Source: Nitrospirota bacterium (lineage in GTDB: Bacteria > Nitrospirota > Thermodesulfovibrionia > Thermodesulfovibrionales > Dissulfurispiraceae). Taken from it: a DNA stretch of 64,000 nt. Positions within the stretch are counted from its first letter, which is position 1. Every line of letters starts with the position of its first letter. Below are positions 25,536 to 64,000 of this stretch, in pieces. The notes under the pieces are model-generated. The model did not search any database, was not told the DNA's origin, and worked only from the letters and a program-made list of their open reading frames with translations. The DNA lies in the NCBI GenBank assembly GCA_040754455.1, contig JBFMCP010000002.1:175639-239638 (forward strand), given 5' to 3'. Position numbers and translations under genes: made by a program.

Positions 25536-25554
25536 ACGCTGCACTCCCGGGAAT

Positions 25555-26589
25555 ATGTACACGGAGATTATCGATCCTGTGCAGTATCCCGCATGGGACG
25601 ATCTGCTGCTTTCCCATGACGGCTATTCGTTCTTTCATTCCTCCTACTGGGCGCGGGTGCTCCGGGAATCATACGGCTATACGCCGCTCTACTTCACTAC
25701 GTTCCGTCACGGTAGCGTGCTGACATTGATTCCCCTTATGGAGGTAAAGAGCCCTTTTACAGGGAGCAGGGGGGTATCTCTCCCTTTCACCGACTATTGC
25801 GACCCGATAGTTCCCGAAGGTCAGGATCTCCGGAGTGTGACGGACTGCTTGGCCGCGTACGGCAGAAAGAGAGGGTGGAAATATATAGAGCTCAGATCCA
25901 GGAACAACAGTAATGAGCAGGATATCTCCTCCTCATATTATTACGGACACGTTCTGACCCTGTCGCCGGACGAGGAAAAAATGAGATCGGGCCTGAGGGA
26001 CAGTACAAGAAGAAATATAGGAAAGGCGGAAAAAAGCGGCGTCGAGGTTATCATCGACAGATCTGCCCAGGCGCTCGCTGAGTTCACCCGATTGAATTGT
26101 GTTACGCGCAGGTCGCACGGGATCCCCCCGCAGCCCGGCCGTTTTTTCAAAAGCCTCTATGACCACATTATCGCAAAGGGGCACGGCTGTATCGCCCGGG
26201 CCGTGTTTCAAAAGAAGACCATAGCAGGCGCGCTTTACCTGCACATCGGCAAAAAGGCTGTTTATAAATATGGAGCATCGGACAAAGCCTACCAGTCCCT
26301 CCGGGCAAACAATCTCGTCATGTGGAAGGCAATCACATGGTATGCCCGGAACGGATTCAAAAGCCTCTGCTTCGGAAGGAGTGAGCCTGAAAACAGCGGC
26401 CTCCTTCAATTCAAATCGGGATGGGGAGCGGACGAGCACTGCATACGGTATTATCGGTACGATCTGCAAAAAGGAGAATTCATGAAAAGAGCCACCCACG
26501 TAAAGGGGTTGCACAACAATATCTTCAATAAGATGCCGGTCCCCTTATTGAGAATGGCCGGCTCGCTGCTTTATAAGCATATAGGATAG
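25555..26589 (+). CDS. FemAB-like / GNAT family protein
   Basis: SFFHSSYWARVL, GVSLPFTDYC, TRRNIGKA, YKYGASD..ANNLVMW, GLLQFKSGWGA; start taken as ATG 25555. Confidence 0.8.
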   Translation: MYTEIIDPVQYPAWDDLLLSHDGYSFFHSSYWARVLRESYGYTPLYFTTFRHGSVLTLIPLMEVKSPFTGSRGVSLPFTDYCDPIVPEGQDLRSVTDCLAAYGRKRGWKYIELRSRNNSNEQDISSSYYYGHVLTLSPDEEKMRSGLRDSTRRNIGKAEKSGVEVIIDRSAQALAEFTRLNCVTRRSHGIPPQPGRFFKSLYDHIIAKGHGCIARAVFQKKTIAGALYLHIGKKAVYKYGASDKAYQSLRANNLVMWKAITWYARNGFKSLCFGRSEPENSGLLQFKSGWGADEHCIRYYRYDLQKGEFMKRATHVKGLHNNIFNKMPVPLLRMAGSLLYKHIG

Positions 26590-27545: not shown

Positions 27546-28727
27546 ATGATAAGGCCCTTTGAGAAACCTGTATATGTGACGAGGCCCTTTTTGCCGCCGC
27601 TGGAGGAGTTCTGCCAGGGGCTCGAGGAAATATGGGAGAACCGCTGGTTGACGAACAACGGACCCGTCCTCCAGCGCTTCACGCAAGAAATGTGCAATCT
27701 CTTCAGGACCGACAATATCTGCCTTTTCAATAACGGGACACTGGCCCTTCAAATAGCCCTGCAGGGAATGGGGATATCAGGCGAGGTCATCACTACTCCT
27801 TTTACGTTTGTGGCAACGACCCATGCCCTGTTCTGGAACAAGATCAGACCCGTCTTCGTTGACATCGAACCGGAGTATTATACCCTTGATCCTGAAAAAG
27901 TCGAGGCGGCGATCACCCCCTGGACAACCGCTATCCTGGCGGTCCATGTCTACGGCCATCCCTGCAAGCTCGATGCGCTGGCCGACATCGCACGACGGCA
28001 CAATCTGAGACTCATTTATGACGCAGCGCACGCGTTTGGCGTAGAAGTCGGCAACACCCCGATCGCTCACTTCGGGGACCTGAGCATGTTCAGCTTCCAT
28101 TCCACCAAATTATTCCACTCCATAGAGGGAGGAATGCTCGTTTTCCGGGAGGCGGGACTGAAAGGCATGTTCGACTACCTGAAGAACTTCGGCTTCAAAA
28201 ACGAGGTCGAGGTCGTCATGCCCGGCACCAATGCCAAGATGAATGAAATGCAGGCCCTGATGGGCCTTCATGTTCTGAAATGCCTTGAAGAGATCATAGG
28301 GCAGCGTGCCAGGATTACCGACGTATATCGAGATGGGCTCGGGGATGTCCCCGGCATTCGCCTCACGCCGGCCCTGCCGCCCGAGGTGTACTACAACTAC
28401 GCGTATATGCCGATCGAGGTGGATGAAGAGGAATTCGGGATGAGCCGCGATGCATTGTATGAAAAACTCAAGGAATGGAACGTATACACCCGCCGTTATT
28501 TCTATCCGCTCATCTGCGATTATTCCTGTTATCGCAGCATTTCGGTGAATGACTCCCTGGCGGTCGCACGCCGGGTGTCTGAGCGCATATTGACATTGCC
28601 GATCTACGACGGACTGGAACTCTCCGATGTCGAGGCCATCTGCGAGATCATTACGTCTCTCCAGCAAGGAACCAAGCATAAGAGGAAGGTCGTTGCTGCG
28701 CCGAGAGAGCTGGCAGGAATAAGTTAA
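27546..28727 (+). CDS. vioA: dTDP-4-amino-4,6-dideoxyglucose aminotransferase (VioA-like DegT family)
   Basis: VYVTRPFLPPLEEF..IWENRWLTNNGP, TTPFTFVAT, IYDAAHAFG, SFHSTKLFHSIEGG, NAKMNE, RRYFYP. Confidence 0.8.
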   Translation: MIRPFEKPVYVTRPFLPPLEEFCQGLEEIWENRWLTNNGPVLQRFTQEMCNLFRTDNICLFNNGTLALQIALQGMGISGEVITTPFTFVATTHALFWNKIRPVFVDIEPEYYTLDPEKVEAAITPWTTAILAVHVYGHPCKLDALADIARRHNLRLIYDAAHAFGVEVGNTPIAHFGDLSMFSFHSTKLFHSIEGGMLVFREAGLKGMFDYLKNFGFKNEVEVVMPGTNAKMNEMQALMGLHVLKCLEEIIGQRARITDVYRDGLGDVPGIRLTPALPPEVYYNYAYMPIEVDEEEFGMSRDALYEKLKEWNVYTRRYFYPLICDYSCYRSISVNDSLAVARRVSERILTLPIYDGLELSDVEAICEIITSLQQGTKHKRKVVAAPRELAGIS

Positions 28728-28743
28728 GCTCGGGAGATCGAAC

Positions 28744-29457
28744 ATGGAAAAAATCGTTCTTTTCGGAAACAGTGTATTTGCTGAGCAAATCTATTTTCTT
28801 CTGACACACGATTCTCCGTACGAAGTGGCGGCGTTTACGGTGGATGGCAACTACATCAAGGATGATACGTTGTTCGGAGTGCCTGTTGTCCCTTTTGAAA
28901 CGGTGGAATCTTCTTTTCCACCTTCAGAGTACAAAATGTCTATCGCGATCAGTTTTCAAAAAATCAACAGATTACGAGAAGAGAAGTACCTGCAAGCGAA
29001 AGCCAAAGGGTATCAGTTCATTAATTATCTGAGCTCCAGGGCCACGTCGTATCCTGGTTTGACGGTCGGCGACAATTGCATTATATTGGAAAACTCCGTG
29101 ATTGCCCCCTATGTCGAGATCGGTAATGATGTCATCATAGCGTCCGGCGCGATGATCGGACATCATACAGTAATAAAAGACCATTGTTTCATTTCTCCCG
29201 GCGCTGTTGTTTTAGGGGGCGTTACCGTGGAAGAATACTGTCTTATCGGAGCGAACGCGACCATTAAAGAGGAGGTCAGAGTCGCAAGGGAGTGCCTTGT
29301 CGGAAGCGGCGTATCAATCACCAGAAATACCCGGGAAAGAGGGGTATATATTAACCCCCCGGCCGATTTGCATCCAAAGAGAAGCGACGAATTGAGAACA
29401 TGGCTGACGTGGCCCTCAAGGGCGCGCAAATTTTCACCGGACTGCGTGTCGAAATGA
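28744..29457 (+). CDS. NeuD/PglB/VioB-family sugar acyltransferase
   Basis: IVLFGNSVFAE, VAAFTVD, N..R, IGHHTVIKDHCFIS hexapeptide repeats. Confidence 0.82.
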   Translation: MEKIVLFGNSVFAEQIYFLLTHDSPYEVAAFTVDGNYIKDDTLFGVPVVPFETVESSFPPSEYKMSIAISFQKINRLREEKYLQAKAKGYQFINYLSSRATSYPGLTVGDNCIILENSVIAPYVEIGNDVIIASGAMIGHHTVIKDHCFISPGAVVLGGVTVEEYCLIGANATIKEEVRVARECLVGSGVSITRNTRERGVYINPPADLHPKRSDELRTWLTWPSRARKFSPDCVSK

Positions 29458-30365
29458 AAGGCAAAGAACGTAAGGTGAGGACCTGCATACGAAATATGAC
29501 GAAAACGGATGTGGAACGGGTGGGGGAGGTTCTCTTTGATGCGTTCAACGCTGGTGCATCGAAACACGGATATGCCCCGAGAATGCAGAGCGTGCAGGAA
29601 GGGACATCCTGGGCCTGGGCTATGCTTCGCCATGGTCCCAGTGAAAGACTGATTGCCGAGGTTGAAGAACGCCCTGTAGGAATATGCTGTCTGCATCCAA
29701 GGGGAGGTCATGGAGGCGTCGGGCCTGTTGCTGTTGCCCCGATGTTTCAGGGATATGGAATCGGACGGGAGTTGATGACCGCTCTACTCAAGAGGGCGGA
29801 GGGGTTACAGAGTGTAAGACTTTTCCAGGAAGCCTTCAATCCCGCTTCTTTTTCTTTGTATTACTCGCTCAATTTCAGGCCGGCAGCAGAGCTGTTGGAT
29901 TTATTTCTGGATGCAGGAGTGCGGGATGGAGTGGATCTGTGCAGCAATATCAGTGCCTTAACCTTGAATGATCTTGATGAGGTGCATGCATATGATACTC
30001 CAAGAAGCACCTTGGACCGCCGGGCGGACTTTGCATATTATGTCAAGTGGGGCAAGGTTTTTGTTTATCGCCGTCAATCGCGGGTTCGCGGGTTTCTGGC
30101 ATGTCTTCCCGGCTCACGGTCGGTGCAGCTTGGCCCCCTCGTCGCCGAAGGAGAAGAGGAGGCTCAGTGCCTGTTCCGCCACGCAGTCGGTGCCTTCAAT
30201 GAACGACCATGCCAAACGCGTGTTATGGCCAGAGATTATTCACTTGTCAGGACTCTTCAGGAATGGGGCTTTAAGCTCTATTGCCTGAACGTTCTCATGG
30301 TGAGAGGTGCATGGAGGCCCGGCCGATATATCGAAGCATTTGGCAGGTTCCCCGAAGGGACGTAA
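29454..30365 (+). CDS. Tandem GNAT-family acyltransferase
   Basis: VGPVAVAPMFQGYGIGRELM CoA-binding motif; second degenerate GNAT half (QLGPLVAE); ATGA overlap with upstream gene. Confidence 0.75.
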   Translation: MKGKERKVRTCIRNMTKTDVERVGEVLFDAFNAGASKHGYAPRMQSVQEGTSWAWAMLRHGPSERLIAEVEERPVGICCLHPRGGHGGVGPVAVAPMFQGYGIGRELMTALLKRAEGLQSVRLFQEAFNPASFSLYYSLNFRPAAELLDLFLDAGVRDGVDLCSNISALTLNDLDEVHAYDTPRSTLDRRADFAYYVKWGKVFVYRRQSRVRGFLACLPGSRSVQLGPLVAEGEEEAQCLFRHAVGAFNERPCQTRVMARDYSLVRTLQEWGFKLYCLNVLMVRGAWRPGRYIEAFGRFPEGT

Positions 30366-30427
30366 GCTGCAAAAAAACTCACCGCTGAAAACCTATATTA
30401 ATGATATCAACATGAGGAGGCGTTGCA

Positions 30428-30679
30428 ATGACGATTCTGAAAAACATTGAGAGATTTCTGCTTTCCGAAATCGCCCCTGATCTTGACAAGCAGTCCCTGG
30501 ATCCTGATGAAGATATTCTCGAGCAGCGGATTATCGACTCCCTCGGGGTGCTGAAGCTGGTAGTTTTTCTGGAGAAGGCTCACGGCATACAGGTGCGTGA
30601 TGAAGATATAGTCCCTGAGAACTTTCAAAGCCTCAACAGTATGGCCAACTTTGTCCAACAGAGGATGCAGAACGCGTAG
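30428..30679 (+). CDS. Stand-alone acyl/peptidyl carrier protein (PltL/AnaD/DltC-like)
   Basis: 83 aa acidic protein; IIDSLGVLKLVVFLE phosphopantetheine Ser motif; IVPENFQS; strong GAGGAGG RBS. Confidence 0.9.
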   Translation: MTILKNIERFLLSEIAPDLDKQSLDPDEDILEQRIIDSLGVLKLVVFLEKAHGIQVRDEDIVPENFQSLNSMANFVQQRMQNA

Positions 30680-30834
30680 TTTGCGTTTTCGGTATAAGCC
30701 GGTGCTCAATGGGAGAGAAAACCAGGAGCGGTAATCCTTTTCCCCAGCCGGGAATACTCTCAAAATCCAGGGCCGTATCAAGATAATATTGTCGATAATT
30801 CCTCTGCTGTAAGAAAGCAGAAGGAGGTAATACT

Positions 30835-31980
30835 GTGAATTTCGAATTCAGTGAAGAGCAATTGGAGTTCAAAAAAAGCGCAATCCTTTTCGCCCGGAAG
30901 ACGCTTAATCACGATATTATCGAAAGGGATAGAGGTGCCGTTTTCTCCCGTGAGCTCTGGAAAAAGTGCGCGAATTTCGGCATACAGGGCTCCGCTTTTC
31001 CTGAACGATACGGTGGGCTCGACGCCGATATATTCAGCACGATGCTCATGATGGAGGGCTTGGGATACGGGTGCAAAGACAGTGGCTTGATTTTCGCCAT
31101 CAACGGACAGATGTGGACGGTGCAGATGCCCATCCTGAGGTTCGGCACTGATGCACAAAAAGATAAGTATCTGCCCGGCCTTTGCAGTGGCGAGCTGATC
31201 GGGGCCAACGGTGTGACCGAGCCGGACTCAGGGTCGGATGTTTTCAGTCTTACCACTTCAGCGAGGCGGGAGGGCGACTACTATATTTTGAACGGCGTCA
31301 AAACATTTTGCACCATAGCGCCTGCGGCTGACGTGTTTATGGTATTTGCTACCGTTGATAAGCGCAAGGGCTTTATGGGGGTCACTGCGTTTATCGTCGA
31401 AAGGGACTTTCCGGGCTTCAGAGTCGGAAGGGATATCGAGAAAATGGGGTTGAGGACCGCTCCCATGGCTGAGCTGATCCTTGAGGATTGCAAAGTGCCG
31501 GCAGAGAACCGTCTCGGCAAGGAGGGGAATGGAGCGGCGATCTTTGAGGACACCGCGGAGTGGGAAAGGAGTTGTATTTTGGCCGGGCTGCTCGGCGCGA
31601 TGGAGAGACAGCTGGAACAATGCATTAAATATTCCAGAGAGCGGAAACAATTCGGCAAAGCGATCGGGAAGTATCAGTCCATTGCCAATAAGATTGTTGA
31701 TATGAAAGTGCGCTTGGATACGTCCAGGCTCCTTCTGTACAAAGTCGCCTGGGCGAAACAGGCCCACGGTAAAGCCGCCATGGATGCCGCTCTCGCAAAA
31801 TTATACATAAGCGAGTCCTGGGTGCGTTCCTGTCTCGATGCCGTCCAGATCCACGGAGGGTACGGCTATACGACGGAATACGAAGTGGAGCGCGATTTGC
31901 GTGATTCCGTCGGAAGTACACTCTATTCCGGGACCTCGGAGATTCAACGGAATATCATAGCCCGCTATCTGGGGCTTTGA
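30835..31980 (+). CDS. Acyl-CoA dehydrogenase family, resembling L-prolyl-[PCP] dehydrogenase (PltE/RedW/AnaB-like)
   Basis: [61 protein letters not shown]-terminus [16 protein letters not shown] and [12 protein letters not shown] resemble the prolyl-PCP subfamily. Confidence 0.8.
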
Positions 31981-32005
31981 TGCCTTCAGACCAACAGAGA
32001 GAAAA

Positions 32006-35000
32006 ATGAAATCCAAAGATACCTCATTACGGATTCAAAAAGCTCTCATCATTGCGCTTGCCGTTCTGTCAGCAATTATTGTGGCGGTGACCTCTGTCAG
32101 TGCGCAGGCCCCCGAACCGGTGGTTGCCATACATGTCTCCGAGCTGACACAGGCCTTGGAGACGATGCCAGCCGAGGCGCCTACCCCGACAGGATCGGGA
32201 GCTACTGGCTATGAGTGGTGGTATACTTCATGGCACTATTTTGTAATGCCTGAGTCATTGAAAGAAGTGCTGCGCTCGGACGGCACGCCGTTTGTTGAGG
32301 TGAGTGATGCCGATATTGCGGCCGGCCGTCTCCTTTATCCTGATGGAACTCCGAGATACCCTATTCTGATCAGCTTAGCCTCTGAGTCGATCGCCGATAA
32401 TGAAATCATACCGCTGCGCGACTACGTCGCTGCCGGCGGATTCCTGTTTATCGGCTCATCAGCGTTTACGCGCAACCCTGACGGCACAACACGGGGAGAT
32501 TTTGCCTTGGCCGATGAGATGGGGATGCATATGGTGTATCCTGCCCTTCAGAACTGGTATAAAAACCTCTACTTCTCCAAAGTTGCTGATCACCGTTTGG
32601 CGGCCGGTATCCCGGCTGGCACCATCGCCTGGCGCATGCCGCTCAGTTCACAGGAGATCCCTTTGGAGACATCGCCGGGGCACTCCGTTCATGGATACCA
32701 CTATGTGTTTCAGGTGTATGCCACCAGCGGCACTACCGTGATTGCCAATGGCGATGCAGGACCGCTGCTCGCAACCAGACAATACGGCAACGGGAATTTT
32801 ATCTACTATGGAGCTCTGCAGCCGCTTATCGGACACACTGTGTATGATCCGTCCATGTACGCATATCTTATTTACCGTCATGCAATCGAATGGGCTTTCG
32901 AGGCCGCCGACCTCCCTCTCATTAAGCTCAGTCCATGGCGCTACGAATACGATGCGGCTTTTATCGTCAGACATGATTTTGAGAACACTGCAGAGTTGAT
33001 ACGGTCCATCGAATCGAGCGCAGCATTCGAACATTCCGTCGGTGCAAAGGGCGATTATTATTTTTGCACGGGCACGCTCCGCGATGAAATGCCGGACAAA
33101 GACACCGTCATTGCCAGCCTGCGGAGAGCAGTCGCCGACTACGGGGCGACGATCGGATCACACAACGGCGGGCTGAAGAATCCGGTAAACACCTCTCTTG
33201 CTATCGGTGCCTTCGATTACTGGCATTGGGGACCTGACGAGGTCCTGAGCAAAGTTCCCCCGGGGTATTCCAGCGGTAAAGCATATGCCCAAGAGTCTCT
33301 TTCTTCGGCCTTCCAGGATATAGAAGGCTGGCTTGCCGGGATAGACAACGGCCGGACGGGGTGCGGTTCGGCGGGGAGCTGCCCACGGATCTGGGCTTCG
33401 CCTTATTTTAACTCGACGCGGGAAGATTCTTACGGCATCCTGCAAGATCTGAATGCCGCGAGCATGGGTGAACAGAAAATCGGCCCCTTTCCACACTGGA
33501 CTCTCTCGTACAATACACCTGACAAGCGGTTCTCTCATGTTTCGATACCAGCGAGCGACTGGTATGTCGGCGCTGAAGTCCCCGGCGCCCTTGAATGGGG
33601 CCATACTGCGGATTCGATGCGGGCGGCCGTCGATTTCTATTACAGCCTTGGCGCCATGATCAACCTGTACGGGCATATGCCCTCAAACGACACTAACCTG
33701 ATGGGGCAGTACGTAAAGTATTGCATCGCCAAACCCCGAATATGGGCAACCAATGCAGTGGAACTATCCGATTGGTGGCGCGTGCGATCCGCTACTGTTA
33801 TTACACCGACATATAGCATGATAGACAATACCTCCATCGCAGAGGCCACGATTAGAGGGGCCACCGACGAGGGCACTACTATTGAAGTGGCTCTGCCTGC
33901 CGGAATCGATCAAATTGATAGTAATCTCCAGGTCTTCATTAACGATGTGCCGGCTGACCCCGCTGATTACCGTATCATTGGGAACACGATAAAGGTTCGA
34001 ATCGGCCCTTCGACTTCCAATGTGAAAGTGCAGTACACGATCAGTGATTCTCCTGTCGGAACCTGGACACAAACCGATTGGATGGGCGGCGGCGGGCAGT
34101 CTGTCTGGAATGATGCAACGCGCTATGGTTCAGCCAGCGGCATTGATGACAGGCTCAGTGGAAACATCAGTCTTGCCGCCAGTAGCACCGTACTGTTTTC
34201 TGATGACTTCACCCGTCTGCCGGACAGCCCTGACCCACTCTCTCCATGGGTTGTTCCGATGGGAACGTGGTCAGTAGCAGAGGGAGTGATGAAAGGATCG
34301 GGTACTCGCCTGCAGTATTCCTATGCCTATATCTCCCCAACGCCTCAATGGACCGATTATACGGTGCAGGGGAGCATCCAGATGCCGGCCGGATCGTTCG
34401 GAGGCGGCATCGGCGGGCGTGTAGATCCTGTCACCGGCGCCCACTATGGCGCATGGGTCTATCCGGCAGGATCGCCGGGTGGGTCGAATGTGTTGAAGCT
34501 GTGGAAATTCCGGGGTTGGACAGACATTGGCGCCGGTGTGCCGATGCAGCAGGTCAGCCTGCCTGATGTCGGCACAGGTTGGCACACGCTCCAGCTGACG
34601 TTCATAGAGAATCGTATCCTCGTTTATTACGACGGCGTCCTGAAGATTGACGTGATGGATAATAATTATGACTCCCGTGCTCCGTATTTGAGTGGTGGTA
34701 TAAGTATGGATTGGGAGGCCTACAAAGCACCGTATACTATAACCGTCGATAACATATCAGTCGTCACCCTGCCGGAGTATGGCAGCAGCGGCGTAGTTGT
34801 ATCTTCGGCTTTTGATGGCGGCGACGGAGTGCAGTGGCAGACCGTATCGTGGGATGCAGCTACAGGGGACAGCACAAATGTTTGCATCAGAACCCGTACC
34901 GCTGATGTGGCCGACCAGCTTGCCGCTGCATCCTGGTCGGATTGCTACAGCACCAGCGGATCGGTGATAATGAGCGGGAACAAACGCTGGATCCAGTACC

Positions 35001-36151
35001 AGATGGAATTGACCACCAGCGATCCGTCAAGCTCGCCTGTTTTCGATGAAATCAGGATATCCTACCTGAAAGGGCCGGTTATCAACAGCTTGGCGCCAGC
35101 ATCAGTTACTGCCGGGAGTTCAGCGTTCACACTTTTCGTCAATGGCAGCGGATTCGCCACTGATTCTATAGTACGCTGGAATGGCTCGGATCGTCCCACA
35201 ACGTATGTCAATGCCACTCAGTTAGCAGTGTCGATACCGGCAACGGATATAGCGGCGGCTGGAACAGTCCAGGTGACGGTGGTCAATCCTTCCTTCGGAG
35301 GGATCATCTCCAATGCCCAAATCTTCACGATCAATAATCCCGTGCCGGCGATTTCGAGCCTGAATCCATCATCCAGGGCAGCCGGAGGCTCAACCTTCAC
35401 ACTTACCGTCAATGGTACCGGCTTCATCAGTGATTCCGTAGTCCAATGGAATGGAGTAGATCGTCCGACCACATTTGTTTCTGCAACACGGCTGACCGCT
35501 GCGATTCCTGCTTCGGACATAGCGACAGCAGGGATGGCCCAGGTGATGGTGGTCAATCCCGCACCGGGGGGCGGCACCTCTCAACCGCAAACCTTCACGA
35601 TCAATAATCCGGTGCCGGCGATTTCGAGCCTGAGCCCTGCGACGGTCTATTCCGGAGGACCGAATTTCACGCTGACTATAAGTGGCAGTGGCTTTGTCCC
35701 CAGCTCGGTGGTCCAATGGAATGGATCTGCTCGTACGACGACGTATATTGCTTCGACCAAGTTGACCGCTGCGATTCCTGCTTCGGACAGAGCGACAGCA
35801 GGGATGGCCCAGGTGATGGTGGTCAATCCCGCACCGGGGGGCGGCACCTCTCAACCGCAAACCTTCACGATCAATGATCCTCCGGTACCGGTAATTACGA
35901 GCCTGAGTCCGTCATCCGCGACAGCCGGAGGGTCGGCCTTCACACTGACCGTCTACGGCAGCGGCTTCGACATCGACTCGGTGGTCCAATGGAATGGAAC
36001 GAGCCGTACGACGACGTATCTTTCATCAACCAAGCTGAGAGCTACAATTACGGCAGCCGACAGAGCGTCGGCAGGAACTGCCCAGGTGACCGTGTTTACG
36101 CCTGCCCCTGGTGGCGGCATCTCCAATCCACTGATCTTTGTAACGTACTGA
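32006..36151 (+). CDS. Large secreted protein: putative deacetylase/hydrolase-like N-terminal region, LamG/ConA-like domain, four IPT/TIG repeats
   Basis: Signal peptide; FIVRHDFE / IGSHNGG / NLYGH NodB-like motifs; [28 protein letters not shown]; four PVISSLxP..FTLTVNGxGF..SVVQWNG repeats. Confidence 0.7.
35493..35875. repeat. Near-identical blocks within IPT/TIG repeats, 270-bp period
   Basis: 35493-35605 vs 35763-35875: 113 bp with one mismatch. Confidence 0.85.
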
Positions 36152-36209
36152 TCCGTCCACTCCGGTTACATCAACATATATCTAATCTGTTCAGCAACGG
36201 AGGTTGAGA

Positions 36210-37799
36210 ATGGCCTACTTACTCCATCACTTGTTATCCGAAAGTGCAGCGAAATACCCGGACAAAGAGGCAATCGTCTGGAAAGACGAGAAAATGACCT
36301 ATGCCGAATTGGAGCGGGAGAGCAACAAATTGGCGTATAGCCTTTCGGAAATCGGGATAAAAAGAGGAGACCGGGTCGGCATTTACATGGAGCGGTCTAT
36401 AACTTTAATGGTAGGGATTTTCGGGATCATGAAGACAGGAGCGATGTATGTTCCCATAGATCCCCTCTGTCCACCGGGCCGCCTCAGCTACATTGTGAAC
36501 AAATGCGAAATAAAATTCTTACTCGTTTTAAAAGAAAAGCTGACAACTATAACGCAAGCGCTTCCTGCATACTCTCCCTTGAAAACCATTCTGGTTATGA
36601 ATGGCCTGGATTCTGAGTCCGGACCGTTCGGATCTGCGAAATTGATCGATTGGCAAGAGATTCGCGGGGCCGCAAGAGAAGAAGCTCCATGCACGAATAC
36701 GATCGATTCGGATGTTGCGTATATCCTGTTTACTTCCGGCTCGACAGGTACTCCCAAGGGAGTTATGCTGTCGCACCTGAACGCTTTGACGTTTATAAAT
36801 TCGGCACACGACTTTTTCCGTATAACAATGCATGATCGGTTCTCCAACGTCTGTCCCCTGCACTTCGATATGTCCGTCTTCGACCTTTTCGTTGCATTCA
36901 AGGCAGGAGCTACTGTGGTCATCATCCCCGAGACCGCCGCCATGTTCCCGGTAAAATTGGTCGAAGTCATTGCGAAGAACAAGATATCGGTATGGAATTC
37001 GGTGCCCTCGGTACTTGCGCTTCTGGCTTCATATAAGAATTTGGAGAGCCACGATCTGTCAAGCCTGCGCCTGGTTCTTTTCGCTGGCGAGCTGTTTCCC
37101 CTGAAATATCTGCAGCGGCTCCGGGAGGCAGTTCCGGGAGCACGGTTTTGCAACATGTACGGGCAGACCGAAGCCAATTCTTCGACGTATTATTGGGTTG
37201 ACCAACTTCCCGCAGATGCGACGGCACCGCTTCCCATCGGCAGGCCGCTGCCGAACTTCGAAGTGTTCGCCATGGACGCTGGCGGCAGACAGGTTACCGA
37301 ACCCGGACAGGAAGGCGAGCTCTATGTGAGGGCGTCCACTGTTGCGCTCGGATATTGGGGTGAAGTTGAGAAAACAAAAAAGTCTTTTGTGAAAAACCCA
37401 CTGAGACCCGACCTGAATGAAAGGGTCTACAAGACCGGTGATTTGGTTCGCTTGGACGCCGATCGGAATTATGTATTCCTGGGCCGGAAGGACCACATGA
37501 TAAAGAGCCGGGGGTACAGGATCGAGATCGGAGAGATAGAAACGGTTTTGTGCAACCACCCGGAAATCCGGAACGCCGTCGTTATCCCCATTCCGGACGA
37601 GCTCATAGGGAACAGGATTTCGGTGATCGTCGTTCCAATGACACCGGGCGGAATCACGAGGGACGACGTTGTGAAATATTGCAGTGCACAACTTCCGAAA
37701 TACATGGTCCCTGAGATTGTTACGTTCCGTGATGCCCTGCCCGCAACTTCATCGGGAAAGGTCGATAGAAAAAAAATGAGTGCACCTGTAGTTGCCTAG
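36210..37799 (+). CDS. Stand-alone amino acid adenylation enzyme (PltF/AnaC/DltA-like)
   Basis: MTYAEL (A1), YILFTSGSTGTPKG (A3), HFDMS (A4), NMYGQTE (A5), YKTGD (A7), GRKDHMIKSRGYRIEIGEIE (A8), SGKVDR (A10). Confidence 0.92.
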   Translation: MAYLLHHLLSESAAKYPDKEAIVWKDEKMTYAELERESNKLAYSLSEIGIKRGDRVGIYMERSITLMVGIFGIMKTGAMYVPIDPLCPPGRLSYIVNKCEIKFLLVLKEKLTTITQALPAYSPLKTILVMNGLDSESGPFGSAKLIDWQEIRGAAREEAPCTNTIDSDVAYILFTSGSTGTPKGVMLSHLNALTFINSAHDFFRITMHDRFSNVCPLHFDMSVFDLFVAFKAGATVVIIPETAAMFPVKLVEVIAKNKISVWNSVPSVLALLASYKNLESHDLSSLRLVLFAGELFPLKYLQRLREAVPGARFCNMYGQTEANSSTYYWVDQLPADATAPLPIGRPLPNFEVFAMDAGGRQVTEPGQEGELYVRASTVALGYWGEVEKTKKSFVKNPLRPDLNERVYKTGDLVRLDADRNYVFLGRKDHMIKSRGYRIEIGEIETVLCNHPEIRNAVVIPIPDELIGNRISVIVVPMTPGGITRDDVVKYCSAQLPKYMVPEIVTFRDALPATSSGKVDRKKMSAPVVA

Positions 37800-37813
37800 A
37801 AGGGGCTGAGTCC

Positions 37814-38986
37814 ATGCAAAAGCTTATCAAAAACAGTTGGCGTCGCGAATCCGGAAAGCCGTTCGCTCAATCTAATATCCTGAGCCATGAAATTCACCCC
37901 GAAGGGCTGGATGTCGATAGAATCAGATTCTTCGAGGTGGGGGGCTTCGTACCGAAACCGGGTACGGGGCACATCATCAGTGTCCTTCGGGGGCGCGGGA
38001 GGCTTCATGTAGAGGGAGACGACAGACAATCCTTTCAGATAGAGGCGGGTGTCCACCTCTATCTCCCGCCCGGCCTGGAGAGTGTTGTTGACGCGGAACC
38101 GGGGACCGAACTCCTGCACGTATCGAGTGCATCGGCCGCACAGGCGCGCGGCACGCAGCTGCTGCTGCGTGACGAAACGTTTCTTGCGGCCTGTGCATCC
38201 GGATCTCAGTTGCTTCGGTGGATTATTACACCCCAGTACCTGAGTCGCCGGATCTTTCTGCACCACGACCCAACCATCCTTTCGAAGTCAGGGAATCCTG
38301 TTTCGTGGTTTCGGACCACGATGTTCGACGTTGCCGGACTTCCTGAAAACGAGGACGGTGAGCCGGTGTTCAAGATGTCCTACAATTCACGAACTGAGTT
38401 CAATGTCTGCTACGATGTGAAAGGGACTGCCCGCGTGCGTATGGCGCAGCACCCTTACAAAGAGAAGCGGCAGCTCTGGGGTCCGTGGTTCATGCTTGAT
38501 GGCGACTCGACCTATCACTTAAACGAGACGGCCGGGAGTCCTGAAGAAGAGTGCCGCATCGACGAGCTGACCGGGACCACGCAATTCCTTCGCAATAAAC
38601 ACGAGGTGTCGATCGTCGGCGGGTATGTGACGCTCTTTTGTCTGTTTGATCCGGCACCTACCGGCGCAGAATGCCACCGGCCCGGCGAGTACAGCGACTA
38701 CGAGCCCCTGGCACAGGTGCTCGGAACAGAGGCGTACGAAACCCTCCGGCGTGAGTTCGTGAAGTACGATGAAATGGTGGATCGGCTCTCTCTGGCTAAA
38801 GCGACGGGCACACTGAGCACGCTCTACGGAACTCCAAGCTGGGAACTGTACGTACAAGGCCGGGAGGCCCAGGCGGCTATCGAAGCCCGGCTTGAAAGGA
38901 CACTTTCTGTTGAGGGCAACGGCCGCTTGCGAATCCTCGCGCCCTGGATGCAGACCGTCGCTGCTTGCTGCGCGGTAACAGCCTGA
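37814..38986 (+). CDS. Hypothetical protein with cupin-like segment(s)
   Basis: 390 aa co-oriented ORF; GHIISVLRGRGRLHV..IEAGVHLYLPPG resembles a cupin barrel. Confidence 0.55.
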   Translation: MQKLIKNSWRRESGKPFAQSNILSHEIHPEGLDVDRIRFFEVGGFVPKPGTGHIISVLRGRGRLHVEGDDRQSFQIEAGVHLYLPPGLESVVDAEPGTELLHVSSASAAQARGTQLLLRDETFLAACASGSQLLRWIITPQYLSRRIFLHHDPTILSKSGNPVSWFRTTMFDVAGLPENEDGEPVFKMSYNSRTEFNVCYDVKGTARVRMAQHPYKEKRQLWGPWFMLDGDSTYHLNETAGSPEEECRIDELTGTTQFLRNKHEVSIVGGYVTLFCLFDPAPTGAECHRPGEYSDYEPLAQVLGTEAYETLRREFVKYDEMVDRLSLAKATGTLSTLYGTPSWELYVQGREAQAAIEARLERTLSVEGNGRLRILAPWMQTVAACCAVTA

Positions 38987-39042
38987 ATGAAGAGAACCTA
39001 TTTTTTAATCGAAGACGTATTCGGTCTCGAAGATGCACCTAT

Positions 39043-40020
39043 ATGAAAAATATTCTGGTTTCGGGCGCCAGTAGTATCCTCGGGTACGGCATTCTGCGTT
39101 CCCTCAGGAAAGCCGGGAAAAATGTAAGGCTTATTGGGACGACAATATATGCTGATTCGGTGGCCCAATATTTTTGCGATGTTTTCGAGAAGGCGCCACT
39201 GACTAATGATCCCGGCTATATTGACTGGCTCCTTAAAACTATTGCTAAGCATCATGTGGATCTTATCATCCCCGGCATAGAAGTGGATGTGTACAAATGG
39301 GTTGAACACCTTCCCGCTCTGGAAAAAAACGGCGTTAAGGCTCTGTTGAACAATCGGGATTTGATTTTGTTGTGCAAGGATAAATGGTCGTTCCATGAAA
39401 AATTAACCGAGATGAACACACCTTATGTAATCGATACGTCGCTGAAATCTGATTTTGATGCATTGGTGGATAAATTCGGTTTGCCTTTTCTTTTAAAGCC
39501 GCGCCGGGGATTCGGTTCGAAAGGTATTGTCATCATAGATAGTAATGAAACTTTTTCAAAGCATCAGCACGCCATCGGGCCCCTCCTGATGGCGCAGCCT
39601 CTCATTGGAAATGAAGATGAAGAATTCACAACATCGGCCTTTTGCGACGGCCACGGGAGCTATTTCGCAAGTATGACCCTGAAGAGAAGACTCTCGAAAA
39701 GTGGTTTTACTGAAAAAGCGGAAGTCGTCACTATGGATGAAATACAGAGGGCATTAGTGATGCTGTGTGCATATTTTAAACCGATAGGACCTACTAATTT
39801 TCAATTCAGAAAGCATGACGGAGCTCTGAAGCTGTTGGAGATCAATCCGAGGATTTCTTCTTCTACATCGATCAGGACGGCGTTTGGATACAATGAATGC
39901 AACATGGCACTTGAATATTATCTGGAGGGCAAAAAACCAACGCAGCCTCTGATACAAAAGGGAAGGGCGGTCCGTTATATCGAGGATCTCATTTTTTATG
40001 AAAATAGGAATCATCTCTGA
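39043..40020 (+). CDS. ATP-grasp domain protein
   Basis: NILVSGA, LCKDKW, LPFLLKPRRGFGSKG, EEFT, LLEINPRISS. Confidence 0.85.
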   Translation: MKNILVSGASSILGYGILRSLRKAGKNVRLIGTTIYADSVAQYFCDVFEKAPLTNDPGYIDWLLKTIAKHHVDLIIPGIEVDVYKWVEHLPALEKNGVKALLNNRDLILLCKDKWSFHEKLTEMNTPYVIDTSLKSDFDALVDKFGLPFLLKPRRGFGSKGIVIIDSNETFSKHQHAIGPLLMAQPLIGNEDEEFTTSAFCDGHGSYFASMTLKRRLSKSGFTEKAEVVTMDEIQRALVMLCAYFKPIGPTNFQFRKHDGALKLLEINPRISSSTSIRTAFGYNECNMALEYYLEGKKPTQPLIQKGRAVRYIEDLIFYENRNHL

Positions 40021-40666
40021 TATCCACGGTAATTATGAAGCTTTAAAGGCGGTTCTTACAGAGTTGGACAGGTTGGGCATCTCTGAAATCTACTGTCTCG
40101 GCGATGTCGTCGGATACTATTCTCAAGTCAATGAATGTTGTGATGAACTGAGATCACGACGCGTCGTCTGCGTGATGGGGAATCATGACTGGTATATGGC
40201 CGCCGGTAGTTGTTGTCCGAGATCCAAAAGCGTTAATGAATGTCTCGCTTATCAGAGAGAAGTAATAACTGCGGGGAATGTACATTGGTTAAGCAACTTC
40301 CCCGTCCATATCCGGATTGACAATATGCATTTGCTCCATGGAGGCTGGTCGGATCCGATAGACGAGTATGTGCGGCCGACTGAAGAATATTTTTCGCGGT
40401 TGAGCGGAGACATATTTGTATCCGGGCATACCCATGTGCAAACGTTGTGTACATATAATGAAAAGACGTATTGCAATCCGGGTTCCGTAGGGCAGCCGCG
40501 TGACAGTGATCCGAGGGCCGCTTTTGCCGTTTATGACGGAGAGTTTTCACTGCACCGTGTGGACTATGATGTGCAGAAAGTCTTTGAACTCATGCAGAAG
40601 GCAGGATTCAGCGACTATTATTACGGTTGTTTAAAAACAGGAGCTAGAAATCTTTGCAGACTCTGA
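39998..40666 (+). CDS. Metallophosphoesterase (calcineurin-like)
   Basis: ISDIHGN, CLGDVVGY, GNHD, GHTH, NPGSVGQPRD. Confidence 0.9.
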   Translation: MKIGIISDIHGNYEALKAVLTELDRLGISEIYCLGDVVGYYSQVNECCDELRSRRVVCVMGNHDWYMAAGSCCPRSKSVNECLAYQREVITAGNVHWLSNFPVHIRIDNMHLLHGGWSDPIDEYVRPTEEYFSRLSGDIFVSGHTHVQTLCTYNEKTYCNPGSVGQPRDSDPRAAFAVYDGEFSLHRVDYDVQKVFELMQKAGFSDYYYGCLKTGARNLCRL

Positions 40667-40830
40667 GTTAACACGAAACCGCTCATAATCGGGAGGTGCG
40701 GCATCCGGCTGCCGGAAAATAGGTTGTGGCCTTCCTGGTCGCAGGTTCCTCGCGGCCTCGCCGCGGGGGAATTCTCGAAGCGCCCGATCCGAACATTACT
40801 GCTCTCCGTTTCTGACGTCATCAACGTGAA

Positions 40831-41796
40831 ATGCACTGCAGGGAAATAAACGAAGCGACCATAGGCTATGCTCATCCACGCTATGCCGATTCTCTGCGCG
40901 AATTCGGTGAGCCACGTGAGTTGCCGCGCTGTGGCGGTTGGATTCTCGTGCGGCCGATTCCCAGTACGCCGTATAAGGACGCCATGGGGTGTTACCCCTT
41001 GTTTTCCTGCCGGGACTGGAGGAAGCTCCACGAAGATATGGAACAGATCAGTTCCGATCTCGTATCACTAACCCTTGTTCCTGATCCGCTCCTCGGAGTC
41101 GACCCCGATTATCTGGTACAAAATTTTGATCTCGTCAAACCATTCAAGACGCATTACGTGGTCGATCTAAGTCAACCCTTAGAGAAGTTCGTCGGTAAGA
41201 CGCATCGTAAAAACGCACGTAAAGCACTCGAGGCAATGGATGTTGAGATCTGCAGTCAACCGATACAATATCTTGACGACTGGGTAAGGTTGTATGACAA
41301 CTTGATTAAAAAGCACGATATCAAAGGAATCAGCGCTTTCTCTCCTCAATGCTTTGAGTCTCAACTTAATGTGCCGGGAATGACCGCCTTCATCGGCAGG
41401 CGGGAGGGAGAGATCGTCGGGGCGACGCTGGTCCTGAGGAGCGATCAAACAGCCTATTTTCATTTATCCGCCTATACCACGGAAGGGTACAAGATACGGG
41501 CTTCGTACGGAACTCACTGGAAGGCGCTTGTCTGCGGATACGAACAGGGCATCCGGTACTTTCACCTCGGTGGAATCGCTGGCACAAAAGAAGACCCGAA
41601 AAACGGCTTGGCCGAATTCAAAAGAGGGTGGTCCAACGATCAGCGCATAGTCTATTTTTGCGGACGTGTGTTCGACAGGGAAAAGTACGAATCTCTTTGT
41701 CAGAGAAGGCATGGCTATTTCCCCGGCTATAGGAGAGGAGAACTGCGTGCTCACGATTTCTATAGCCACGATCGGACTATTATGACAGCGCAGTAA
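40831..41796 (+). CDS. GNAT/FemAB-like protein
   Basis: HRKNARKA, AYFHLSAY, LGGIAG, GLAEFKRGWS; start uncertain. Confidence 0.7.
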   Translation: MHCREINEATIGYAHPRYADSLREFGEPRELPRCGGWILVRPIPSTPYKDAMGCYPLFSCRDWRKLHEDMEQISSDLVSLTLVPDPLLGVDPDYLVQNFDLVKPFKTHYVVDLSQPLEKFVGKTHRKNARKALEAMDVEICSQPIQYLDDWVRLYDNLIKKHDIKGISAFSPQCFESQLNVPGMTAFIGRREGEIVGATLVLRSDQTAYFHLSAYTTEGYKIRASYGTHWKALVCGYEQGIRYFHLGGIAGTKEDPKNGLAEFKRGWSNDQRIVYFCGRVFDREKYESLCQRRHGYFPGYRRGELRAHDFYSHDRTIMTAQ

Positions 41797-41907: not shown

Positions 41908-42609
41908 GTGAGGGTTTTGGTCTTATTCGGCGTTGGTAACATGCTCAGCGATATCTATGACTGTGTCACGGTGCTGGGGAAAGAGGTCACCAGGATTGTC
42001 ATAAACGCACCGGAGCAGAGGCGCGAGCGGACAAAAGACTTCGAAACAAGGCTCCGGGAACTCGGTGAGCGGCCACTGATCACGCCACTGAAAGATTTTG
42101 CTCCTGAAGAAGGCGAAGAGTACTTCGTCGTGCCGACGACGCTTAAAAAAAACGTTCTTATCGAGTTCCTCAAAAGCAGATACCGCATGCGGTTTGCGCA
42201 GCTCATTCATCCTACGGCATACATTTCTCCCTATGCAAAGATCGGACAGGGCGTTTTCATCGGCGCAAGGAGTGTGATCGGACCGGGATCTGTTCTTAAA
42301 GACCACGTCTTCGTGAACCGCGGGGTGACTGTGGGGCACGATACTGTCCTCCATGAATACGTTCGATTGAATCCCGGCAGCAATGTTGCAGGCCATGTCG
42401 AGATATGTGCCGGTGCGATGATCGGTCTGGGCGCCAGCGTTATCGAGGAGCTTGTTGTCGGAAGGGAGGCCGTCGTTGCAGCAGGCGCGGTGGTGATCAA
42501 AGACGTACAGGAAAGGACCATGGTAGCCGGCGTCCCGGCGGTTGTCAAGAAAGTGTTTGAGAACGAGACCGGCCGCAGCGCCGTGGACGGCTCGAAAGTG
42601 GAGAAATGA
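41908..42609 (+). CDS. NeuD/PglB-family hexapeptide acyltransferase
   Basis: LIHPTAYIS, VNRGVTVGHD, VAAGAVVIKDV..VAGVPA. Confidence 0.85.
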   Translation: MRVLVLFGVGNMLSDIYDCVTVLGKEVTRIVINAPEQRRERTKDFETRLRELGERPLITPLKDFAPEEGEEYFVVPTTLKKNVLIEFLKSRYRMRFAQLIHPTAYISPYAKIGQGVFIGARSVIGPGSVLKDHVFVNRGVTVGHDTVLHEYVRLNPGSNVAGHVEICAGAMIGLGASVIEELVVGREAVVAAGAVVIKDVQERTMVAGVPAVVKKVFENETGRSAVDGSKVEK

Positions 42610-43578: not shown

Positions 43579-45045
43579 ATGGCGAACAGTCTTCAGCATA
43601 CAACAGTTTACGCACTCTTATGGAGCTTTCTCGATGCTGTTGCACAGCGGGGTGTGCAATTCATCATCAGCATTGTTTTGGCGCGGCTGCTGTTCCCCGA
43701 GCAGTTCGGATTGATCGGGATGCTGACGATCTTTATGGCTGTCACGCGGACGTTTCTCGACAGCGGATTTGGCGCAGCCCTGATTCAGAAACAGGAGGTC
43801 ACGCAAACCGACATCTGCTCTATTTTTTATTTCAATATAGCGGTAGGACTCGCGGCTGCCGGCCTCTTGAGTCTTGCTGCTCCCTGGATCGCCGCTTTCT
43901 ACAGGCAACCTATCCTCACGCCGCTGACGCGGGCGCTGTCGCTGACCATCGTGATCAATTCATTCGGCATGATTCAGAAAACAGTCCTAACCAAACACAT
44001 CAATTTCAAAGTCCAGACGAAAGTGAGCCTCATTGCCGGTGTGCTGTCGGGTGCAGCCGGCATTACGCTGGCCGCCCATGGCTTCGGCGTGTGGAGTTTG
44101 GTTGTCCAGCAAATATCCGCTTCGCTTTTCGCAACCGTTAGTCTCTGGGCGTTCAGTTCATGGAGACCGGCGCTGATCTTCAGCTTCACGGCATTGAGGG
44201 AAATGTTCGGGTTCGGGTCGCGGCTATTGGCTTCGAGTGTCCTTAACCAATTTTTTGATAACATCTATTTTGTAGTTATCGGCAAGCTGTTTTCAGCGAC
44301 CGATTTGGGATTTTTCACGCGCGCCAAAACGATGAATGACCTGCCTTCACAAACATTGTCGGGAATCGTCGCACGGGTAACGTTCCCCGTGTTTTCTACT
44401 ATCCAGGGCGATCGTGCCCGATTGAAAAGAGGGTTGAAAAAGGCCTTGGCTATTCTGGTTCTGGTGAATTTCCCGCTGATGATCGGCCTCGCGGTTATCG
44501 CCCGTCCATTGGTGCTGGCACTGTTGACGGAAAAGTGGGCTGCATGCGTTCCATATTTCCAGTTGCTCTGTGTGGTCGGCATGCTGTTTCCGTTGCAGGC
44601 GATGAACTTGAACGTATTGCAGGCCCTAGGACGGTCCGACCTGTTTTTGCGTCTGGAGATCATAAAAAAGATTATGATCGTGATCAACATTGCGGTCACC
44701 TGGCGATGGGGGATATCCGCGATGATCTACGGCATGATCATCAACTCGGTAATATCCTACTATTTAAACAGTTATTACAACGGCGTACTGGTCGATTACC
44801 CGCTCAGAGAGCAGGTGCTTGACCTGCTCCCGTATCTCATTGTGGCCATTGTGATGGGTAGTGCGGTATATGCCGCCGGGTTGCCGCAGTTCCTTACCCA
44901 TTGGTCCAGACTTCTGGTACAAATCACGGCGGGATGTGTTCTCTATGTCGGTCTGTGCCGCATGCTTCGCCTGAAGGCTTTTATGGAGATCTGGCAGGCA
45001 ATGTGGAATAGAATGCCATTGACGAGCGCCGGAACCGCACGATAA
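43579..45045 (+). CDS. wzx: Wzx flippase (WzxC/TuaB-like, MOP family)
   Basis: LARLLFPEQFGLIGML, DSGFGAALIQK, many TM helices, FPVFSTIQ. Confidence 0.88.
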   Translation: MANSLQHTTVYALLWSFLDAVAQRGVQFIISIVLARLLFPEQFGLIGMLTIFMAVTRTFLDSGFGAALIQKQEVTQTDICSIFYFNIAVGLAAAGLLSLAAPWIAAFYRQPILTPLTRALSLTIVINSFGMIQKTVLTKHINFKVQTKVSLIAGVLSGAAGITLAAHGFGVWSLVVQQISASLFATVSLWAFSSWRPALIFSFTALREMFGFGSRLLASSVLNQFFDNIYFVVIGKLFSATDLGFFTRAKTMNDLPSQTLSGIVARVTFPVFSTIQGDRARLKRGLKKALAILVLVNFPLMIGLAVIARPLVLALLTEKWAACVPYFQLLCVVGMLFPLQAMNLNVLQALGRSDLFLRLEIIKKIMIVINIAVTWRWGISAMIYGMIINSVISYYLNSYYNGVLVDYPLREQVLDLLPYLIVAIVMGSAVYAAGLPQFLTHWSRLLVQITAGCVLYVGLCRMLRLKAFMEIWQAMWNRMPLTSAGTAR

Positions 45046-63746: not shown

Positions 63747-63800
63747 GTGGGGTTTTGGGGATGCGGACAAAGCGGAAAGAATAGAAGAGAGTTTTTTACC

Positions 63801-64000
63801 ATGAAGAACATACTCGTCACAGGCGGCTGCGGGTTTATCGGCTCCAACTTCATCAGGCTGGCGTTACAGCGTTTGCCGGAGTGCCGTCTTGTCAATCTGG
63901 ACAAGCTCACCTATGCGGGCAATCTTAACAACCTGACCGATATCGAAAATGATACACGCTATCGTTTTATAAAGGGCGACATCTGCGACCGTGCCGTAGT
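63801..64000 (+). CDS. rfbB: dTDP-glucose 4,6-dehydratase (3' truncated by window edge)
   Basis: Manual translation [38 protein letters not shown]; not in the ORF track. Confidence 0.92.

Follow-up and report, generated by a model that had tools for sequence, protein, structure and literature searches.

Type II nonribosomal peptide synthetase (NRPS) cassettes such as PltF/PltL/PltE, PigI/PigG/PigA, RedM/RedO/RedW, and AnaC/AnaD/AnaB consist of a stand-alone adenylating enzyme, a small carrier protein, and a dehydrogenase of the acyl-CoA dehydrogenase (ACAD) fold, and turn proline into a pyrrole or pyrroline unit. Here we describe a set of genes with the same three components and an additional bicupin gene, located in a surface-polysaccharide locus of a Nitrospirota bacterium (contig JBFMCP010000002.1). 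The window, by which we mean the whole stretch of DNA analyzed, is 64,000 nt long; the locus of interest is 27546..41796, and all genes named in it are on the + strand. The window resembles the proline cassettes in its adenylating enzyme, its carrier, and its dehydrogenase of the same clade, but differs from them in the non-proline code, in the added bicupin, in dehydrogenase scores under the equivalog cut-offs, in having no downstream ketosynthase (KS), condensation domain, or halogenase, and in belonging to the polysaccharide operon of an uncultured anaerobe.

Carrier-dependent aminoacylation of the cell envelope is performed by DltA/DltC and by AlmE/AlmF/AlmG, in which an adenylating enzyme and a small carrier bring an amino acid to a surface glycopolymer or lipid A. 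These systems have neither a dehydrogenase nor a bicupin, and their transferases are the MBOAT protein DltB and AlmG. The DltA models match the adenylating enzyme of the window at 290.5 bits, under the cut-off of 476. The exosortase A-associated acyl-CoA ligase/acyl carrier protein (ACP) set (TIGR03098) likewise combines an AMP-forming ligase and a carrier in PEP-CTERM/exosortase polysaccharide loci. TIGR03098 is the top NCBIfam row of the window enzyme, which scores 391.6 bits against a cut-off of 592.35 and falls outside the family; the decarboxylase and hydrolase that accompany that set are lacking in the window.

A carrier-borne acyl group destined for a surface glycan has been described for the O-polysaccharide genes wfpC-wfpG of Flavobacterium psychrophilum. 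According to that study (PMC6519341), a locus-specific carrier bears the acyl group, a 3,5-dihydroxyhexanoyl, and a PglD homologue is predicted to transfer it from the carrier to UDP-Qui2NAc4NH2; nuclear magnetic resonance showed that the polymer has the N-acyl group. The F. psychrophilum group is built by ketosynthases and a ketoreductase (PMC6519341), whereas that of the window would derive from an adenylated amino acid oxidized by a flavoenzyme. The full-text literature searched, which excludes subscription journals, gave no account of such a cassette in a polysaccharide locus. What appears to be new is the branch with a changed code, the strict linkage of this branch to a bicupin family that has no name, and hints of a free-acid substrate.

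Dehydrogenase and adenylating enzyme

Gene content, family placements, the conserved code change, and genetic linkage were seen directly and are given first. The flavin adenine dinucleotide (FAD) enzyme encoded at 30835..31980 has the three-domain ACAD architecture, with PF02771, PF02770, and PF00441 all above their cut-offs. In NCBIfam it scores 459.9 bits with the PigA model (NF053553) and 406.6 bits with the RedW model (NF045652); catabolic models reach 313.9 bits at most. Of the proteins with a solved structure, the prolyl-ACP dehydrogenase AnaB (4irn; 473.6 bits) comes closest, followed by 6cxt (340.6 bits) and PigA (325.8 bits), and solved chains named butyryl-CoA dehydrogenase or generic ACAD reach about 291 bits or less. 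The 86 rows of a quick maximum-likelihood tree came from 78 of the 79 related genome loci (L016, with a frameshifted match, was left out), a PigA orthologue, three other secondary-metabolite ACADs, and four catabolic ACADs. The tree splits the four catabolic ACADs from all other rows with a Shimodaira-Hasegawa-like approximate likelihood ratio test (SH-aLRT) value of 100, and the window enzyme is on the side of the PigA orthologue. This orthologue was recognized in plasmid records by its pig-cluster context; no named prolyl-carrier dehydrogenase was found in those records. The initial annotation had proposed this phylogeny as a check, and scores, solved chains, and the split all group 30835 with AnaB and PigA and not with the catabolic ACADs. 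Judging from these comparisons, the enzyme belongs to the prolyl-carrier-protein dehydrogenase clade. It is also the most conserved member of the cassette (79-89% identity in the best 120 clusters), and the species-genome collection has relatives of it in at least 558 stretches, some in a glycan setting and others in a natural-product one.

The closeness to AnaB was considered as a sign of two-electron chemistry and rejected as not diagnostic, because a control relative that is linked to a halogenase and has a proline-code partner is also nearest to AnaB (501.6 bits, vs. 326.3 bits with PigA). From the sequence, either a pyrrole or a pyrroline (four- or two-electron oxidation) may form.

The adenylating enzyme (36204..37799) exceeds the cut-off of the NRPS-type amino-acid adenylation model (TIGR01733, 388.3 bits; cut-off 317.4), and the positions matching Asp235 and Lys517 are kept as the D of an HFDMS motif and the K of an SSGKVDR motif. 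By these features it is, we are confident, a real amino-acid activating enzyme. The initial annotation had taken the proline-loading trios as the model for this enzyme. The best solved match of its pocket stretch is PltF (6o6e; 109.3 bits), and the ten-position code taken from the PltF alignment, numbered after GrsA-PheA, is DMFNLAMSSK in the window enzyme vs. DLLYLALVCK in PltF. Six of the ten positions differ, which sets the enzyme apart from L-Pro-specific partners. According to the PltF structure paper (PMC7723355), the L-Pro pocket is conserved among Pro-processing adenylation domains. Proline is thus an unlikely substrate, as far as the code can predict it.

The changed code is not a peculiarity of one enzyme. 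Among 37 partner enzymes of related loci, 12 have D-M-[FVI]-N-L-A-[MLI]-[ST]-S-K, 22 have the proline-type code DL[FLQH]Y..V[CI]K, of the DL[FL]YLALVCK kind, and three are odd or broken. The bicupin-linked enzymes from metagenomes have N278 in 40/40, S331 in 42/42, and S or T at position 330 in 42/42. In its degree of conservation the new code equals the proline code. Adenylating enzymes with the window code are united in a single, long-stemmed clade (SH-aLRT 100; branch length 0.54), and the dehydrogenases of the same loci form one clade (SH-aLRT 99) nested among those of proline-code loci, from which they differ by a single fixed change, A91G (19/19 vs. 24/24). Because the two code classes map onto the trees, with one A91G change and a conserved L-Pro pocket, we conclude that a single substrate switch probably happened, to something still proline-like. 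The smaller and more polar residues (Y278N, V330S, and C331S, together with A91G of the dehydrogenase) would fit a larger ring or a polar substituent.

Two loci have a dehydrogenase only 47% identical to that of the window (L132, 4201-5343; L144, 3307-4449) beside an adenylating enzyme of the window type and a bicupin; the flavoenzyme may therefore have been exchanged there.

Bicupin

The open reading frame (ORF) immediately downstream of the adenylating enzyme (37814..38986) encodes a protein of 390 aa that matches no Pfam or NCBIfam family over its cut-off (best Pfam E value 0.036). Among 1.84 billion representatives, a profile search picked out no more than 82 relatives, and 44 of these have E values up to 1e-30. 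The structure predicted from a 34-row alignment shows two cupin barrels followed by a helical bundle, with a predicted local distance difference test (pLDDT) score of 93.8 and a predicted template modeling (pTM) score of 0.92; an earlier model from 13 sequences was discarded (pLDDT 52.7). With this model, Foldseek gave a best E value of 3.9e-12 at template modeling (TM) scores of about 0.43-0.46, and the VIA comparison gave Z 18.0 over 226 residues with a root-mean-square deviation of 3.0. The predicted two-cupin fold would be common to an IolB-like protein (Z 18.0), ureidoglycine aminohydrolase (17.1), BacB (15.7), and AerE (15.0). BacB and AerE are bicupin isomerases in pathways of non-proteinogenic amino acids. 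Identity to these proteins and to quercetinase is 5-13%, and the window protein has the extra C-terminal helical bundle. Because no more than about 3 Z units separate the matches, no function follows from the fold, and the leads offered by the Protein Atlas (cupin/AraC_binding and HgmA_N) were nothing specific.

The bicupin gene adjoins that of the adenylating enzyme, before or after it, in 13-14 of the genome loci closest to the window. From metagenomes, scanned independently, 80 bicupin loci were retained, of which 35 have at least 3.2 kb on one side; in 30 of these 35 the adenylating enzyme is directly beside the bicupin, and the dehydrogenase is present in 24 at 50% identity or more and in two more at 47%. 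The code change and the bicupin always occur together, in 40/40 cases from metagenomes and in L027. The trio of the initial annotation has therefore to be extended: the conserved unit comprises four genes, with the bicupin as the fourth (30/35 linkage to the adenylating enzyme). The bicupin is patchily distributed: of 201 genomes sampled from the phylum, 5 have it, the present genome counted, and of 13 from the family of this genome, 0 have it.

Three bicupins with wide flanks stand alone. One lies amid transposase debris, and the other two have flanks of 7 kb and 2.4 kb and of 5.4 kb and 3.1 kb. In L143 (2001-9640) and L145 (5386-8944), the lone bicupin shares 66-67% identity with that of the window. 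The genes around these two encode a Glu/Leu/Phe/Val-type dehydrogenase, 2-oxoacid:ferredoxin oxidoreductase subunits, a DUF362 protein, and a Liv-type amino-acid transporter. Because these two bicupins adjoin genes of amino-acid metabolism and transport, the arrangement, seen in two loci only, suggests that the bicupin acts on a free amino or oxo acid and has a role in supplying an unusual amino acid.

Carrier, amino-sugar genes, and candidate transferases

The carrier (30428..30679; 83 aa; PF00550, 26.6 bits) has its attachment site at D37-S38, an Asp-Ser pair that is invariant in 19/19 aligned relatives. Its gene adjoins the ACAD gene in most loci in which both were found, usually 0.3-0.5 kb before the start of the ACAD frame.

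Three genes that bear on the acceptor or on the transfer precede the carrier gene in the window. The first (27546..28727; PF01041, 314.5 bits) encodes a DegT-family sugar aminotransferase resembling DesI and VioA, which scores 310.2 bits with the DesI model TIGR04427, under the cut-off of 650; a relative is near the cassette in 9 of the 79 loci (50% coverage). Of a possible dTDP-viosamine route, the window shows this aminotransferase and an 84-aa dehydratase fragment. The second gene (28744..29457) encodes a left-handed beta-helix (hexapeptide) protein of the NeuD/PglB/VioB family of sugar N-acyltransferases, narrowly over the cut-off (TIGR03570, 162.2 bits; cut-off 160.8), and its cluster (cluster 5) is found just upstream of the carrier gene region in 9/30 loci. 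The third gene (29400..30365) encodes a two-domain GNAT (PF00583, 49.3 bits; PF18014, 38.4 bits), for which the start at 29454 given in the initial annotation is also plausible. Its cluster (cluster 6) is present in nine loci, often together with the hexapeptide acyltransferase, and immediately before the carrier gene where this was called; L055 has two small uncalled ORFs in between. A sequence search at an E value of 0.01 found no solved relative of this GNAT, and the Protein Atlas gave unnamed GNAT clusters only.

Two FemAB-like proteins are the remaining candidates. The first (25402..26589; assigned by family match) recurs rarely, in 3 of the 79 loci at 50% coverage, one relative being only 21% identical, and in 2/30 in the locus clustering. 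The second (40831..41796; GNAT fold; PF13480, 33.5 bits; PF02388, 24.8 bits; cluster 8) recurs in 5 of about 19 cassette loci. The initial annotation had left the choice among three GNAT/FemAB-like proteins; in our analysis the best precedent is for the PglD/NeuD-type 28744 or the adjacent GNAT 29400, and the FemAB-type proteins appear less supported.

An alternative gene set was observed directly upstream of the carrier gene in L004 (6396-9251), and also in L014, L017, L030, and L157. It encodes an unknown protein of 220 aa, a VOC protein like methylmalonyl-CoA epimerase, an FkbH-domain protein (TIGR01686, 300.4 bits; cut-off 146.65), and a second small ACP, which suggests that a glycerate-derived unit is combined with the amino-acid unit. 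The FkbH-domain protein has no similarity to GNAT 29400. An O-methyltransferase of the small-molecule type accompanies the cassettes of L008, L009, L012, L016, L123, and L149 and of further metagenome loci.

Glycan setting and absence of assembly-line partners

The cassette recurs in glycan loci of many phyla. A Pfam scan found glycan genes around it in 7/7 close genome loci (Wzt/ABC-2 exporters, glycosyltransferases of families GT1 and GT2, pyruvyl transferases, DegT, FdtA, and hexapeptide acyltransferases) and in 8/10 long metagenome loci, and the co-occurrence with sugar genes elsewhere thus bears out what the initial annotation expected. Of the two metagenome loci outside this pattern, L120 has LuxC/LuxE, reductases, and a decarboxylase, and the other has FkbH-like and radical SAM genes. 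Proline-code cassettes are found in glycan loci too (L019, L020, and L035, with polysaccharide deacetylases, PIG-L, GNAT, FemAB-like, and MurJ-like genes). The dehydrogenase relatives of L032, L063, and L076 are accompanied by halogenases or NRPS parts.

No condensation, KS, FabH, or thioesterase family was detected among the long, mostly + strand ORFs of the window that were scanned, in agreement with the initial annotation. The whole genome, rated 100% complete, has no condensation-domain match and no multidomain polyketide synthase (PKS), and its KS content is three stand-alone KS-sized frames; a PKS or NRPS partner outside the window, which would have spoken against the initial interpretation, is thus not indicated. 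Four PP-binding matches are present in the genome: the carrier of the window, two beside KS genes, and one in a fusion of AMP-binding, carrier, and PlsC-type acyltransferase domains. The fourth was considered as an NRPS partner and rejected because of this fusion architecture.

AnaB and PigA use oxygen in vitro. Genes for electron transfer flavoprotein (ETF) lie near the dehydrogenase or the cassette of relatives in L020, L025, and L164, and the present genome has one ETF locus; an anaerobic electron route therefore fits.

Proposed pathway and alternatives

We propose that carrier 30428, dehydrogenase 30835, adenylating enzyme 36204, and bicupin 37814 would constitute a four-gene carrier-protein acyl module that is mobile between surface-glycan loci. 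The bicupin would make or reshape a free, proline-like amino or oxo acid other than proline, and the adenylating enzyme would activate this acid and load it onto the phosphopantetheine arm of the carrier. The flavoenzyme of the AnaB/PigA clade would then desaturate the carrier-bound aminoacyl group, with the electrons passing to ETF in this anaerobe. Either 28744 or GNAT 29400 would move the acyl group to the 4-amino group of a dTDP-4-amino-4,6-dideoxyhexose, which the rfbB-like dehydratase and aminotransferase 27546 may provide; the step via 28744 is proposed because of the ACP-to-PglD-homologue transfer predicted for F. psychrophilum (PMC6519341). The decorated sugar would finally enter a Wzx/Wzy, exosortase-type exopolysaccharide. 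We infer the chemistry, substrate, product, and acceptor from the genes, and consider the chances evenly balanced that the module loads and oxidizes a proline-like non-proline amino acid and N-links it to a 4-amino-6-deoxyhexose of the polysaccharide.

Four outcomes had been named beforehand as refuting the initial annotation, and on three of them (ACAD clade, co-occurrence with sugar genes, PKS/NRPS partner) the findings came out in its favor. What stands of that interpretation is the clade of the dehydrogenase, the recurrence in glycan loci, and the lack of an NRPS or PKS partner; what has to be given up is proline as the substrate and the unit of three genes.

Several observations weigh against the pathway proposed here. 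The dehydrogenase is under both equivalog cut-offs (500 for NF053553; 650 for NF045652). So are relatives with proline-code partners, and that they score alike (446-462 bits with the PigA model; 398-416 bits with the RedW model) speaks for the pathway. The predicted fold of the bicupin is generic, with Z 15-18 for many bicupins of unrelated function, and 5 of the 35 bicupin loci have no adenylating enzyme. Two of the ten long metagenome loci have no glycan gene within 7 kb. Some cassette loci lack the beta-helix acyltransferase and some lack the GNAT, and the FkbH-domain protein, the second ACP, and the VOC protein replace the GNAT in L004, L014, L017, and L030. Since the aminotransferase scores under the DesI cut-off, the acceptor sugar is a guess, and a 2,3-diamino-sugar route in the locus (22839-25535) could provide another amine.

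The alternative closest to the initial annotation is that L-proline is loaded, that a pyrrolyl- or pyrrolinyl-carrier is made and a GNAT or FemAB protein puts the group on viosamine, and that the bicupin is an unrelated passenger. It could draw on PltF as the best solved match of the pocket stretch, on the dehydrogenase, which differs from the enzymes of proline-code partners at one fixed position only, and on the proline-code cassettes in glycan loci (L019, L020, and L035); the six changed code positions, a new code as conserved as the proline code, the conserved L-Pro pocket of Pro-processing domains (PMC7723355), and the constant pairing of code change and bicupin (40/40; L027) make it unlikely. 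We consider it improbable that the product is a free or lipid-bound small molecule, such as an N-acyl amino acid, a signal, or a pigment precursor, from an island merely shared with glycan genes. The relatives with halogenases or NRPS parts (L032, L063, and L076), the 2/10 long metagenome loci away from glycan genes, L120 among them, and the reported link between PEP-CTERM loci and N-acyl amino acid synthases would agree with such a product. The window has no thioesterase, condensation, or KS partner for it, however, and the genome has no condensation domain; in 15/17 annotated loci, moreover, the cassette is in mid-operon, between the genes for sugar aminotransferase or acyltransferase and the flippase.

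Esterification or amidation of an unoxidized amino acid onto the polymer, with the ACAD in another role, would make the locus a variant of DltABCD or AlmEFG, by which such aminoacylation of envelope polymers is established, and would agree with the match to the DltA models, sub-threshold as it is. This we regard as very improbable, given that the ACAD is the best conserved member and adjoins the carrier gene in most loci and that a scan of + strand ORFs between 16 and 53 kb gave no DltB/MBOAT or AlmG-type partner. Large secreted-protein genes in or beside the cassette, as seen in the window and in L013, L123, L008, L012, and L135, raise the alternative that the acyl group is put on a secreted protein (a 1381-aa repeat protein of the window or PEP-CTERM proteins) and not on a sugar. 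Those proteins are not homologous across loci, and most cassettes are without them, while the constant neighbors are sugar-modifying genes; this alternative seems to us extremely improbable.

The proposal of an N-linked, carrier-derived acyl group on an amino sugar can be taken one step further, which we do tentatively and with more doubt than conviction. The bicupin may found an oxygen-independent route to a new non-proteinogenic amino acid that is cyclic or in some other way proline-like. A retuned PltF-type enzyme would load this amino acid, and a likewise retuned prolyl-carrier dehydrogenase would convert it to an acyl group that is unsaturated or heteroaromatic and, in some relatives, O-methylated. 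With this group joined to a 4-amino sugar by an amide bond, the result would be an undescribed class of surface-glycan decoration, spread by gene transfer through many lineages of uncultured anaerobes. N-acyl groups on amino sugars shape antigenicity, recognition by phages and predators, and the physical properties of the biofilm matrix. If the proposal is true, thiotemplate chemistry of natural products has been recruited for glycan decoration, and in one branch a different amino acid has come into use along with a new enzyme family. The locus would then be a target in the search for a new sugar substituent, would offer a new bicupin that modifies amino acids, and would show how nature retunes the specificity of a PltF-type enzyme.

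Other features of the locus

The genes named in the initial annotation are present where it placed them, on the + strand and with strong family matches, with slight shifts of start codons. It made no mention of the inserted 1381-aa protein, the 390-aa ORF at 37814-38986, or the exosortase type of the locus. The polysaccharide locus spans about 16.3 to 62 kb on the + strand and is of the XrtA/PEP-CTERM exopolysaccharide type by its export protein, chain-length determinant, ATPase, exosortase, and PEP-CTERM protein. Scores (cut-offs) are 225 (180) for TIGR03027, 418.9 (278.85) for TIGR03007, 391.1 (324.5) for TIGR03015, and 26.4 bits (16) for the PEP-CTERM model TIGR02595; the exosortase matches the subfamily model TIGR02602 at 113.8 bits (105.55) and the XrtA-specific TIGR03109 at 131, under its cut-off of 208. 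A tyrosine kinase (just below cut-off), a priming sugar-phosphate transferase, several GT2 enzymes, and an AsnB-type amidotransferase are also encoded. The Wzx/Wzy setting reported initially was recovered by family scan, with Wzx at 43579..45045 and a weak Wzy_C match at 54794..56104. The rfbB-like gene at the window end (63747..63998; PF16363, 41.4 bits; PF01370, 34 bits) is there as well: its frame is open-ended and runs into the contig end after the first 84 aa of an NAD-dependent sugar 4,6-dehydratase/epimerase.

The dehydrogenase and adenylating enzyme genes are separated by that for the secreted repeat protein of 1381 aa (32006..36151; NF058597, 444.3 bits), which has choice-of-anchor Z repeats, four TIG domains, and a signal-peptide-like N-terminus without a PEP-CTERM tail. 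A homologue in the same position is found only in L013 and L123, and the gene is an insertion, not a conserved cassette member. Other, unrelated genes for large surface proteins were observed at or near the same spot of the cassette in L008, L012, and L135.

Downstream of the bicupin (38965-40666), the gene for an ATP-grasp ligase (NF009402, 223.5 bits; cut-off 218) overlaps a metallophosphoesterase gene; ATP-grasp 38965 and phosphoesterase 39998 were rejected as cassette members, with relatives in 0/79 loci. At 41908-43566, a second NeuD-type acyltransferase adjoins a beta-keto acid cleavage enzyme (PF05853, 264.5 bits), which recurs in L027 with 71% identity and may supply an unusual acyl-CoA for another N-acylation. 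A GFO-type oxidoreductase, a hexapeptide acetyltransferase, a DegT aminotransferase, a WecB epimerase, and an NDP-sugar dehydrogenase are encoded at 22839-25535, 47128-48249, and 59642-60949. This set looks like a 2,3-diamino-uronic-acid route and resembles WbpB/D/E. A polysaccharide pyruvyl transferase is followed by a protein like the beta subunit of coenzyme F420-hydrogenase at 56995-59563, and a 184-aa protein (63132-63686) has a PEP-CTERM-like tail of VPEP, a hydrophobic stretch, and basic residues that was missed by the hidden Markov models. Just upstream of the locus, on the - strand (13953-15806), a secreted protein with fn3, InlB-B-repeat-like, and glucuronyl-C5-epimerase beta-sandwich domains is encoded. 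The sole RNA gene found in the window is tRNA-Val (CAC) at 7872-7946 on the - strand.

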